The position numbers and the translations under genes are program-made. Of a DNA stretch of 64,000 nt, positions 38,332-42,010 are shown piece by piece; within the stretch, counting starts at the first letter, position 1; the number at the start of each line of letters is the position of its first letter. The stretch is from the NCBI GenBank assembly GCA_963831685.1, contig CAWHRJ010000015.1:62305-126304 (forward strand), in the 5' to 3' direction. The DNA is from an uncultured Pseudomonadota bacterium (GTDB taxonomy: Bacteria > Myxococcota_A > Polyangia > Fen-1088). The notes beneath the pieces were generated by a model that had not been told where the DNA came from, did not search any database, and was given only the letters and a program-made list of their open reading frames with translations.

Positions 38332-39336
38332 ATGGCGACCAAACAGACCAAGACCCCCGATAAAAAGACCGCCGCGAAGGCCGAGACCAAGGCGGCCGAC
38401 CTCAAGGTCGATCCCGCCCTGGCGCGCACCCGCCTCGCGGCCACCGGGCGCAACGACGCCTGCCCCTGCGGCTCGGGAAAGAAGTACAAGAAGTGCCACC
38501 TCCCGGCCGACGAGCAGGCCGCCGCGCCGGCGCCCGAGGCGCCCGACGCGCAGGCGCTGGTCACCGAGGGGTGGCGCCTGTTCGAGCAGCGCCGCCCGGG
38601 CGCCGCCGAGAAGGAGTTCCGCGCGGCGCTGGCGATCGACGCCAAGCTGGAGGACGCGCACGTGGGGATCGGGATGGCGCGTCTTTCGGCCGGGAACGCC
38701 GACGGCGCGAAAGAGGAGCTGGGGATCGTGCTCGCCTCGGGTGAGGCGGCGGCGGAGAAGATGAAGGCCGACGGCGTCAAGGATGCCTTCAGCAAGCCGG
38801 AGGCGCAGCCGTTCATCCGCGCGGCGCACGCGCTCGGCTGCCTGGCCTACGACGAGGAACGCTACGAGGAGGCGGTGAAGGATCTGGCGCGCGTGCACGC
38901 GATCGACGAGGGCAGCGTCGGGGTCGAGGCGCGCCTCATCGCCGCCAAGGCGCTCATGAAGCTGGAGCGTCCGGCCGAAGCGGCGGCGCTGCTCGGGCCC
39001 GCGACGAAGATCGAAGAAGGAAAAGGACGCGCCCAGCTGGGCCTCGCGCTCGCCGAGTTCGCCGCCGGCAACGAGGCCAAGGCGCGCGCCGCTCTGACGA
39101 CCGCGCTCGACGCCAACCCGCACCACGGCAAGACGTTGCTTGGCCGCGTCCGCCGTCGGGTGGAGAACCTGGCCGGCGCTCGCCCCGGGTCGCTCGAGGA
39201 GGCGCTGCTCTACGCGCAGACCTACGGCGACGTCTGGACCGACCCCGCCAAGAAGTTCCTGGAGACCGTGCTCGACGAGCGCGCGCGCAGCCAAAAGTCG
39301 GCCGCCGAGGACGAAGGCGCCGCCGCGCCCGCCTAG
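38332..39336 (+). CDS. SEC-C metal-binding motif protein with TPR-like repeats
   Basis: GRNDACPCGSGKKYKKCH near the N-terminus, followed by TPR-like helical repeats. The TAG stop is part of the CTAG abutting the mobile element. Confidence 0.6.
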   Translation: MATKQTKTPDKKTAAKAETKAADLKVDPALARTRLAATGRNDACPCGSGKKYKKCHLPADEQAAAPAPEAPDAQALVTEGWRLFEQRRPGAAEKEFRAALAIDAKLEDAHVGIGMARLSAGNADGAKEELGIVLASGEAAAEKMKADGVKDAFSKPEAQPFIRAAHALGCLAYDEERYEEAVKDLARVHAIDEGSVGVEARLIAAKALMKLERPAEAAALLGPATKIEEGKGRAQLGLALAEFAAGNEAKARAALTTALDANPHHGKTLLGRVRRRVENLAGARPGSLEEALLYAQTYGDVWTDPAKKFLETVLDERARSQKSAAEDEGAAAPA

Positions 39337-39368
39337 ACGACGCCTCTCACGATTCGTCACATCTTCGG
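39337..39368 (+). repeat. left terminal inverted repeat of the IS-like element
   Basis: See the mobile element entry; read directly from the sequence. Confidence 0.75.
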
Positions 39369-39426
39369 GACGCAAACATCCGCGGATTCAAGTGGCTGCG
39401 ACCCGCGCAGGGCAACATCCGCGGAA

Positions 39427-40125
39427 TCAAGTTGGGTGCGCGCGCGGCGCCGAGGCAGGGTGCTCCTCGACCCGCAAAGGACCGCCCGCGCGCCTCCATC
39501 CGACGCGCGCCATCCAGGTGGCCGGCGGCGCCGTCGCCGGAGGAGCGCCGGTGATCGCGGGCGCGCGCTGCCACCCCGAAAAGTGCGGCCCCGAGCTGCG
39601 CAGGTCGATGCACGCGGGCGCCCGGAGGTGCTTGCGGAAATTGAGCAGCACGTAGACCAGGCTGGTCCGCATCTGGCGCGGCGTGGTCAGCTGGCGCGCG
39701 TGATAGCGGTCGCCAACGACCTGCCCTTTGCGTCCGAGGGCGCGGTTGACCGCCAGTGCCAACCGGATCGCCAGGCCGTGCATACCCCCGCGGGCGCGCC
39801 GGGCCTCGTCCCCCTCGACGATGAAGTGGCCGTGGTCCTGCTGGATAGAGAAGTGGATCACCCGGAACCGATCGACCGACGCCCGCGCGATGGCGCGCCG
39901 GAGCGCCCCGAACACGCGGGGCGAGCGGAGCGACGGCAGCCCAGGCGTCGCGCGAATCGTGACCTGCACCGGGTATCGCGGATTGACCTTCGACCGGGTG
40001 TCGTGGGGCATCGAGGGACGGCCGCGCGGTTTCCGCCCGGCGCCCTTGCGAGCGCCACCCCACGTGCGTGGTACCCCGAGGGGCAAGTCGAGCTGACGCC
40101 GTCGCACCGTCTTGATTCCGCGCAT
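39427..40125 (-). CDS. IS200-like / REP-associated tyrosine (Y1, HUH) transposase family protein (COG1943)
   Basis: 232 aa. YPVQVTIRATPGLPSLR, HUH-type FSIQQDHGHFIVEG and Tyr motif SLVYVLLNFRKH. The start and stop codons each lie inside a copy of the subterminal repeat. Confidence 0.7.
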   Translation of the reverse strand: MRGIKTVRRRQLDLPLGVPRTWGGARKGAGRKPRGRPSMPHDTRSKVNPRYPVQVTIRATPGLPSLRSPRVFGALRRAIARASVDRFRVIHFSIQQDHGHFIVEGDEARRARGGMHGLAIRLALAVNRALGRKGQVVGDRYHARQLTTPRQMRTSLVYVLLNFRKHLRAPACIDLRSSGPHFSGWQRAPAITGAPPATAPPATWMARVGWRRAGGPLRVEEHPASAPRAHPT

Positions 40126-40306
40126 GTCCCGTTGTCGGCGCAGAGCGCGGCGGGTTGCGTGGGGCGAGGCCGGACGACCGCTAGGACCGCGGCGCTCGCG
40201 TGACTTGATTCGGCGGAGGTGCGGTCGGCGGAGTTGGGGACCGCCGATGGGTTGGGCGCGTCGGCGCGCGGACGGCTCGACCTTGATTGCGCGGATCTTG
40301 GTGCCG

Positions 40307-40338
40307 CCGAAGATGTGACGAATCGTGAGAGACGCCGT
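40307..40338 (-). repeat. right terminal inverted repeat of the IS-like element
   Basis: See the mobile element entry. The outermost 6 nt plus CTAG plus flank form a 16-nt perfect palindrome CGCCGTCTAGACGGCG. Confidence 0.75.
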
Positions 40339-40348
40339 CTAGACGGCG

Positions 40349-41311
40349 CTACATCCCGTTGCGGCGGAGAATCTCGCGGGCCTTCGCCTTGTCCGCGGTG
40401 AACGTGAAGGCCTCGTCGAGGCCGAAGGCCTTCTCGGGATCGACCAGACGCGGGGCGCCGAGCTCCAGCACCCGCAGCTTCGTCGCCGAAAAGGAGACCA
40501 GGTCGATCAGGGTCTTGAGCTGCCCGACCCGGAAGTAGTTGCGGGTGGCCGCCTGCCGAACGACGCCGATCTGCCCCTCCGAGAAGCTCTCGTTCTTCAC
40601 TGCGGCGACGAGCGCACGGAACGCGCCCTCGTCCATTGGGCGAGGTGGCTCGGGGCGCGCCTCGCGCGGCGGCGGGGGCGGCGGAGGCGGATAGCTCGGT
40701 GGTGGCAGCTCCCGCGAGGGATTCCGGCGGGTCGTACGGACGCCGCATCGGCGCCGGCCGCGGCGGCGCCTCGAGGGCGTGCGGCTCGAGGCTCCAGAGC
40801 TGATCCGCGCCGCCGTCGCAGGCCCACAGCATCACGTTGTCGCCGCGCGCGCCCGCGCGTCCGTTCACGTCCAGGCAGAGGCCCCGCTTGTTGTTGTGCA
40901 GCTCGAACGTCCCGGGCCCGCGCGGGACCAGCGTCCACCGCTGATTGTCCAGGCTCTCGCAGCGGTAGATGTCGACGTTGGCGCCAGGCGCGCCGTCGTA
41001 GCCGGCCGCGTCCAGACAGGTCCCGTTGAGCATGTTCCGCAGCTCGCCGTCCGGCGTGAACGACCAGACCTGGTCGGGATTGCCGTTGCACTCCCACAGC
41101 AGGACGTTGGAGCTTTTGGCCCCGGCCCAGCCGTCGACGTCGAGGCACATCGCCTGCGCGGCGTTGCGCAGCCGTCCCGGCCCCGACGGCGGCGGAACGG
41201 CCAGCGGTCCGTGATGCCGCCGCGCCTCGGCGCGGCCCCCGGCGAGCGCCGTGGCGAGGAGAGCGAGGGCAAGGTGGGCCGGGCAACGGAGGACATGGAA
41301 GCCCTTGCCAT
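40349..41311 (-). pseudogene. secreted ricin-type beta-trefoil lectin + DUF4476 protein, about 2 frame changes
   Basis: Signal-like AHLALALLATALAGGRAEA. Three QxW repeats (DQVWSF, NQRWTL, DQLWSL) in the frame of ORF 39858..41528, a Pro-rich linker, then ORF 40349..40636 (FRALVAAVKNESFSEGQIGVV...LIDLVSFSATKLRVLE), which is DUF4476-like. The in-frame ATG at 41311 is in a different frame from the signal peptide. Confidence 0.55.
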
Positions 41312-41368
41312 CGACCCATCCGCGGTCTCGCTTGAGCTGCCCGCTCCCGCGGCCGGCGCTGGTGGCGC

Positions 41369-42010
41369 CTACTTCTTCGCCGGCTTCTTCGCCGACTTCA
41401 CTTCGGCCAGCCAGTCCTCGATCTTCTTCTCGTCCGCTTGTCGAGCTCTGCGGTCTGCTCGTCGAGCGCCTTCTTGTCGCCGGCGAACGACATCTCGAGC
41501 GCATCGGGATAGTCGTTGGCCAGCGCATTCAGCATGACGTCGTAGTCGGTCACGACGTTCGAGTTCCCCCCCTTGGAATCGATTGTCGCCATCTTCTTCC
41601 CGGTCGCTTCGATTGCCTTCTGCTGCTTGACCCGGACCGTCTCGACGTCCTCCTTGGTCTTCGCGTGGGCGTAGGCGGCGCGGTATTTCTGGATGTCGGC
41701 GAACACCGCCTTATGAAGCGGCAGCTTGGTCTTGTCGTAGGCGAGCAGGCGGTCGTGCTCCGCGCCCGCCAGCTCTGCGGCCAGCTTCTTCTCCGCCGCC
41801 TGGCGCTTGGCGATCGTTGGCCAGCGACAGCCCGTCGGGGTTGGCGACCATCTTCGGCTTGGCGGCCGCGTCGGGCGTCGGCGCCGCCGCCGCCGGGGGC
41901 GGTGTCGGTGGGGCGGCGGGCGGCGGCGCGGGCGGCGCCTCCTTCGAGCAGGCGACGCCCATTCCCATCACCAGGACCAACGTCGAGACGAAGCTCGCTG
42001 CTCGCATCAT
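41369..42010 (-). pseudogene. hypothetical lipoprotein, 2 frame changes
   Basis: GGGAGGTGG RBS, MMRAASFVSTLVLVMGMGVACSKE lipobox and a Pro/Ala linker (ORF 41711..42166). It continues as ...KAVFADIQKYRAAYAHAKTKEDVETVRV... (ORF 41398..41706) and ends ...DEKKIEDWLAEVKSAKKPAKK-stop in a third frame. Confidence 0.5.

Follow-up and report, generated by a model that had tools for sequence, protein, structure and literature searches.

The window analysed here is a stretch of 64,000 nucleotides (nt) from an uncultured bacterium of the Polyangia (contig CAWHRJ010000015.1 of assembly GCA_963831685.1, positions 62,305 to 126,304 of the forward strand), and coordinates below refer to it unless stated otherwise. 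Positions 39344–40331 lie between a SEC-C/TPR gene on the left (38332–39336) and a DUF4476 open reading frame (ORF) on the right. They contain a single gene, on the minus strand at 39427–40125, for a 232-residue HUH/Y1 protein resembling the REP-associated tyrosine transposases (RAYTs; REP, repetitive extragenic palindrome). We consider, with a probability of about 0.68, that this segment is a 988-bp autonomous insertion sequence (IS) with the RAYT-like HUH/Y1 gene as its only gene. The window copy is one of many copies of a widespread mobile element of approximately 1 kb, found in soil Polyangia (Myxococcota).

The element ends in inverted repeats. The core on the stop-codon side, CTCTCACGATTCGTCACATCTTCGG, occupies 39344–39368 on the plus strand, and the core on the start-codon side (40307–40331, minus strand) is identical to it, where no such identity is expected by chance. 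Imperfect similarity continues past 39368 to approximately 39392, making the repeats 25 nt long if only the perfect part is counted and about 50 nt long if the imperfect part is included. Outside the cores are two 7-bp segments, ACGACGC on the left (39337–39343) and ACGCCGT on the right (40332–40338), each followed outwards by a CTAG (39333–39336 and 40339–40342). With these segments included, the arms (39337–39368 and 40307–40338) match at 30 of 32 positions. A third similar 7-mer, ACGGCGC, lies in 40343–40352 and overlaps a CTAC; it matches the left 7-mer at 6/7 positions and gives the window the pattern S-CTAG-S, where S is the 7-mer, known beside several other copies. The TAG at 39334–39336 is the stop codon of the SEC-C/TPR gene. 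The original prediction, made from the window alone, placed the element exactly between two stop codons, which is not the case on the right, since the stop of the DUF4476 ORF (CTA at 40349–40351) is 7 nt beyond the CTAG.

An 18-mer, ACATCCGCGGAWTCAAGT, occurs five times within the element, where 0.03 occurrences are expected by chance. Two copies without mismatches are on the plus strand at the left, at 39376–39393 (ACATCCGCGGATTCAAGT) and 39415–39432, and three are inverted at the right, at 40110–40127, 40203–40220 and 40281–40298 on the minus strand, with 2, 2 and 3 mismatches respectively. The second contains the stop codon of the gene (TCA at 39427–39429 on the plus strand) and the third contains its ATG. 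These features were described correctly in the original prediction, as was the ORF with its DHGHFIV and YVLLN motifs. The 18-mers are nevertheless not a general part of the architecture, being absent from sub-families whose protein is about 83% identical to that of the window. A 16-nt perfect palindrome, CGCCGTCTAGACGGCG, is also present as predicted at the right end and flank (40333–40348); a palindromic flank was rejected as a general feature of the copies (mean 3.22, compared to 3.14 by permutation). We note that the start-side 18-mers (40110–40298) follow one another at intervals of 93 and 78 nt and share the reading frame of the gene, in which they would encode M-R-G-I-K, L-R-R-I-K and I-R-A-I-K, and that this frame continues without a stop upstream of the ATG for nearly the whole distance to the element's end. 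Rfam gave no match on the element.

The protein belongs to a large family, with 1703 close homologues in a first search and 4828 clusters at 50% identity (E < 1e-3) in a second. In an alignment of 41 members, residues H97, H99, E103, Y157 and N161 are invariant, in the pattern DHxHLIVE ... YVLxNxRKH. Y1_Tnp (PF01797) is matched by 38 of these 41 and is the only Pfam domain identified in the family. The family profile matches TnpA_REP of E. coli (4er8) first and then TnpA of ISDra2; similarly, in a Foldseek search the AlphaFold2 model (predicted local distance difference test score 86) matched 4er8 best, ahead of ISDra2, IS608 and IS200. Y---N is present and is followed by K-H as in the E. coli protein, with F, W or A in place of the P of Y---NP. 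This motif (Y---N...KH) and a DPxSS tail are reminiscent of the enzymes that Quentin et al. (2018) place in class 2 (TnpA_REP-like). Profile, conserved residues and structural match identify the protein as a true member of the HUH/Y1 enzymes, closest to TnpA_REP, in agreement with the original prediction, and we infer that it is the transposase of the element. It also has a Trp-rich C-terminal extension and a basic N-terminus, WGGARKGAGRKPRGRP, which is predicted to be disordered and in our view is AT-hook-like. Public records label the protein as “hypothetical”, “putative transposase” or “REP-associated tyrosine transposase”. Related coding sequence occurs in runs labelled as metatranscriptomes, which is weak evidence of expression.

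Comparison of the copies defines the true ends. In the aligned copies the conserved end begins at CTCTCACG (39344 and 40331 in the window), and the termini read 5′-CTCTCACGATTCGTCACATC... as inverted repeats. The 6–7 nt between this end and the CTAG are different in every copy and are direct repeats within a copy, matching at 7/7 positions in L011, L015, L108 and L182 and at 6/6 in L013, L009, L012 and L131 (L numbers denote the loci compared). At least six matching direct bases were found in 12 of 37 complete elements; the expectation was 0.8, and none of 2000 permutations gave more than 5. Because they are copy-specific and are directly repeated more often than in the permutations, the flanking repeats are, by this sequence comparison, a target-site duplication and not a part of the inverted repeat.

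This result bears directly on the original prediction, which took the arms as a 32-bp inverted repeat and the CTAG as a 4-bp target duplication. In the window alone that reading is natural, given the 30/32 match and a CTAG abutting both arms. The comparison of copies refutes it, and we regard it as scarcely credible: the 6–7 nt beside the CTAG are unrelated between copies, and are direct rather than inverted within each. The inverted repeat stands without its outer 7 nt, and the CTAG is indeed present at both flanks, as a target motif outside the duplication. Duplication of the CTAG itself was rejected on the same grounds, as was an 11-bp duplication “AG-S-CT”, in which the inner CT/AG would have to copy outer variants and does not (L015, L012 and L001/L006). 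The last two are inverted copies 20 kb apart in CAVSAG010000004.1 (about 562–592 kb) and carry swapped duplication halves, which implies that the two copies recombined and inverted the segment between them; undoing the inversion restores one 7/7 and one 6/7 pair.

The ends also differ from REP hairpins, as had been proposed. Folding of the core gave −0.4 kcal/mol (z = +0.24) and the start-side end gave z = −0.4; the stop-side pair of 18-mers shows weak pairing (z about −2.2), and the start side shows none. Hairpin recognition of the REP or IS608 type is therefore unlikely, because the end core does not fold.

An exact CTAG is found outside the core in 54 of 108 unique ends, at a distance of 7 nt in 34 and 6 nt in 20, and variants with one mismatch are common among the remaining ends. 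CTAG is rare in these genomes: there are 13 in the window, where about 180 are expected from base composition (69.5% GC), and 454 in 1.06 Mb of loci, an under-representation of about 14-fold. At 34 of 102 ends the TAG of the flanking CTAG is the stop codon of an inward-pointing ORF with high GC3 (G+C at third codon positions). Any inward ORF stopping within 25 nt is found at 41/102 ends, compared to 2.4% of random control positions. The sequences thus identify CTAG as the target motif, with CTAG-N6/7-CTAG as the preferred site. From the frequency of CTAG we estimate that a genome holds a handful of perfect double sites, and the data are consistent with an element of high site specificity, which occupies the best sites first and those with one mismatch afterwards. 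The bases outside the CTAG resemble the duplication above chance (3.87, compared to 3.14 ± 0.11), and perfect S-CTAG-S arrays adjoin L007, L009, L081, L117, L124 and another copy in run X39, and probably also L034, where no end sequence was detected.

The element is present at 19 or more loci in the metagenome-assembled genome (MAG) CAVSAG01 (MFD05841.bin.2.137), and in several copies each in other Polyangia MAGs. A scan with 18 nt of the end matched at least 120 metagenome contigs, in many of them approximately 100 nt from the contig end, as expected of a repeat at which assemblies break. Coverage in soil runs is far deeper over the element than over its flanks, and contigs from other insertions diverge exactly at 39344–39346 on the left and 40330–40332 on the right. 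All 17 ORFs compared are intact, with a median dN/dS of 0.24 and dS of 0.12. A tblastn search of a plasmid collection gave no match. The sequences describe a long-lived and slowly moving family, not a recent burst.

The link between gene and ends is close. About 180 ends were examined, and wherever they enclose an element of more than 900 bp the Y1 gene is inside it, with 82–93% amino acid identity; no other transposase gene was found between the same ends, and the IS110-type (L136) and IS3-type (L199) genes near ends belong to separate elements. The link persists in the sub-families that lack the 18-mers and have unrelated subterminal DNA. Gene-less derivatives of 177–250 bp also exist, and they share the ends and the duplications; L182 is one of them, with the arrangement CTAG-GCTGCCC-[177 bp]-GCTGCCC-CTAG. 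Several soil contigs of run X6 join 39432–39436 to 40111 through about 30 unrelated bases, and are internally deleted derivatives, similar to MITEs (miniature transposable elements with inverted repeats), with breakpoints at the 18-mers. A mobile unit bounded by inverted repeats, with dispersed copies and miniature derivatives, had been suggested from the window and is found in the MAGs and metagenomes.

RAYT-like genes flanked by long inverted repeats have been named TIRYT/TIRtron (Di Nocera et al., 2013, PMC3733652), so that the original prediction of an undescribed architecture holds only in part. As in those systems, a RAYT-like HUH/Y1 gene here lies between long terminal inverted repeats, not REP hairpins, and the genome contains these repeats at other places too. 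Most TIRYTs are placed in subclass 2.1, which has a C-terminal helix-turn-helix (HTH) and a GGGGWSAS repeat motif, according to Quentin et al. (2018, PMC6006769). In contrast, the window ends (39344–39392 and 40283–40331) contain no GGGG and hence no GGGGWSAS, and Pfam detected no C-terminal HTH/DnaA_C domain in this family. Further differences are the multi-copy whole unit, the 6–7 bp duplications, the CTAG-N7-CTAG target and the miniature derivatives. A full-text search of PMC3733652 returned neither “duplication” nor “direct repeat”, and the sections of it used here describe neither proliferation of whole elements nor a CTAG target nor miniature derivatives. We met no Y1/HUH element in the literature, ISfinder not being covered, for which duplications, proliferation of the whole unit or a CTAG-N7-CTAG target is reported.

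The REPtron of E. coli (YafM, PDB 4er8) is the closest solved structure and profile match, with the Y---N...KH and “SS” tail motifs in common, and the short derivatives consisting of two inverted ends resemble REPINs. It differs in having hairpins and a GTAG tag, where our ends have neither and the flanking CTAG lies outside the duplication. It has the P of Y---NP, missing here, and target duplications are present here. It is also inherited vertically as about one gene per genome, compared to at least 19 copies in one MAG here, although single insertions of our element can be old. IS200/IS605 elements (IS608, ISDra2) similarly are small, multi-copy elements with an HUH/Y1 transposase as the sole transposition gene and a tetranucleotide whose distance from the ends is fixed. 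However, they lack inverted ends and duplications, in contrast to the 25-nt perfect inverted repeats and 6–7 bp direct repeats here; they have asymmetric subterminal hairpins, which are absent here; and they have Y---Q (subclass 1.1; Quentin et al., 2018, PMC6006769) where our family has YVLLN with the invariant N161.

The inverted ends, fixed-length duplication, palindromic target preference and MITE-like derivatives are all shared with classical DDE insertion sequences, some of which have a symmetric target consensus (e.g., Tn10 and IS231). Here, however, no DDE or RNase H-fold protein is encoded, and the sole gene has the HUH/Y1 fold, with no other gene within any copy. In its inverted ends, 6–7 bp duplications, CTAG-N7-CTAG site and gene-less derivatives, the element is unlike all characterized elements that have an HUH/Y1 enzyme.

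We infer from the sequences a mechanism as follows. A transposase dimer would recognize the identical end sequence on opposite strands, and would open each target strand directly 3′ of a CTAG, leaving a 5′ stagger of 7 nt. The 3′ ends of the element would then be joined to the target, and gap repair would duplicate the 7 nt. The geometry CTAG-S-[element]-S-CTAG is what such staggered opening, 3′-end joining and gap filling would give. The subterminal 18-mers, which cover the start and stop codons, are probably extra protein-binding or autoregulatory sites of the window's sub-family. The termini of the element are 5′-CT...AG-3′, and more speculatively, excision that reseals CT to AG between the two duplication copies would create S-CTAG-S. 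This footprint would supply new CTAG half-sites, and re-insertion there would give the pattern seen. We put forward the complete scheme, in which RAYT-like HUH/Y1 transposition uses paired inverted ends, CTAG cuts 7 nt apart, duplication and CT+AG resealing that makes new half-sites, as tentative and at slightly less than even odds. HUH enzymes cleave DNA on the 3′ side of short specific motifs; a paired reaction on two strands would be new for them.

Several other explanations of the same data need to be considered. DDE transposition is recognized by inverted ends with a duplication of fixed length, HUH transposons are generally without duplications, and derivatives without the gene show that their ends function in trans; the element might thus be non-autonomous and mobilized by an unlinked classical transposase, for example of the DDE type, with the Y1 gene as passenger or regulator. 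We consider this unlikely, because of the exclusive pairing of the Y1 gene with these ends in all elements over 900 bp, the separate nature of the nearby IS110-type and IS3-type genes, and the purifying selection on the Y1 ORF in 17/17 copies with invariant catalytic residues. We think it rather improbable that the gene is instead a resident, domesticated host gene family similar to TIRtrons or REPtrons, spreading short repeats only, and that the copies are old duplications kept for a host function. Such a history would accommodate the divergence of the copies, all of which are intact at a dN/dS of 0.24, the insertions orthologous between MAGs, the closeness of the protein to TnpA_REP, and the precedent of RAYT-like genes flanked by inverted repeats. 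It does not accommodate whole units, gene included, that share ends and have copy-specific duplications at unrelated loci, nor 19 or more copies per genome compared to an average of 1.3–1.8 per replicon for RAYT groups. In addition, assemblies break at the element, and the element at the window locus is present in some related genomes and absent from others.

A single-strand peel-and-paste insertion into CT^AG in the manner of IS200/IS605 would be the reading closest to known Y1 chemistry. It fits an element that starts with CT and finishes with AG, and the S-CTAG-S beside several copies would then be pre-existing arrays, with no duplication involved. It would however require every site to have contained three CTAGs with identical 7-mers between them, and CTAG is too rare for that to be possible. 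No S-CTAG-S arrays were seen away from elements and there are no subterminal hairpins, making this reading very improbable.

Against an autonomous HUH/Y1 element moving by the paired-end scheme there are a number of observations. No transposition, cleavage or excision event was observed, and the proposed chemistry is without precedent, because single strands are the substrate of the characterized HUH/Y1 transposases, which leave no duplications (Craig, 2022; Quentin et al., 2018, PMC6006769). Orphan S-CTAG-S footprints, expected from excision, were not seen, such arrays being found only beside elements. The window protein alone had no match in Pfam or the PDB and a weak match to REP_Tyr_transpos in NCBIfam (E = 6e-4); the family profile and structure model were needed for its assignment. 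The duplication copies in the window agree at only 5/7 positions, which fits an old insertion. Nucleotide identity between copies within CAVSAG01 is approximately 90% and reaches 95.6% at most, and flank-to-flank BLAST among 203 loci showed some insertions to be common to MAGs with 86–92% identical flanks and revealed no empty sites. Present-day activity of the family is therefore unproven, since the copies are only about 90% identical and related MAGs share some insertions. Finally, contigs of four soil runs contained no joint or read skipping the element at the window locus, and neither they, the relatives nor the comparison of loci provided a base-precise empty site.

IS200/IS605, IS91/ISCR, Helitrons and Replitrons all use single-strand mechanisms, do not need inverted ends and generally make no duplication. 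From a family of about 4800 clusters at 50% identity whose Y1 enzyme sits in an element with inverted ends, duplications and miniature derivatives, it would follow either that Y1 enzymes can carry out a staggered insertion similar to double-strand transposition, or that an unknown partner is involved. The complete scheme proposed above, if true, would be a way of transposing that has been described for no HUH transposon, and possibly a model for how TIRYT and RAYT enzymes move DNA. The dissemination of such DNA is a long-standing question, for which the element offers a tractable system with a short defined end (CTCTCACGATTCGTCAC) and a defined target. A highly specific and compact, integrase-like enzyme of 232 residues aimed at CTAG-N7-CTAG could also be of practical interest as a tool.

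Three related genomes (L201–L203) have an orthologous HEM4-TPR neighborhood without the element. Their TPR protein is 89–92% identical to that of the window and ends in (G)TAG despite the absence of the element, which implies that the left half-site existed before the insertion; exact look-up of the TPR protein gave no match. The empty orthologous site of L201 reads TAG-CGGGCGC-TCAG-CGCGCGC-TAC, and L202 and L203 are shorter there by 11 nt (7+4), which is consistent with the CT+AG resealing suggested above. These genomes did not yield a base-precise empty site because the window carries an extra segment of approximately 1 kb (ricin/DUF4476, 40349–41375) in comparison with them. This segment is bracketed on both sides by GCGC(C)TAC, and contains a ricin-type lectin (about 40640–41330) and the DUF4476 ORF (40349–40636), both on the minus strand in different frames, which could be one frameshifted gene or an assembly error. 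Next to it, at 41364–41706 on the minus strand, the orthologue of a gene of about 220 amino acids in L201–L203 appears to be frameshifted near its 3′ end, and finishes ...DKRTRRRSRTGWPK* compared to ...DKRTKKIEDW... in the relatives. This is either a real mutation or an assembly indel error.

Distant relatives of the protein (41–49% amino acid identity) occur in MAG SMAG_U2265 (L069–L080), within at least 12 copies of a unit of approximately 900 bp. The unit has conserved boundaries (left ...TTCATGAA..., right ...GGCCGAGCCCT), and no inverted ends were detectable in these copies. The protein family therefore includes elements of different end architecture.

Two further arrangements of the end core were noted. 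In L023 (2711–2770), one end of an element has two copies in tandem, in direct orientation and separated by 36 nt. In three contigs that are unrelated to one another, an IS110-family element (DEDD, PF01548) adjoins the end core, each time at the same base, with the junction ...CTCACGATTCGTCACATC/CCGCKTAACTTCTTCGAGCCC... (L136, about 896–1836; L149, about 658; L165, about 139 on the minus strand), which suggests that an IS110-type element specifically targets the inverted repeat of the Y1 element.

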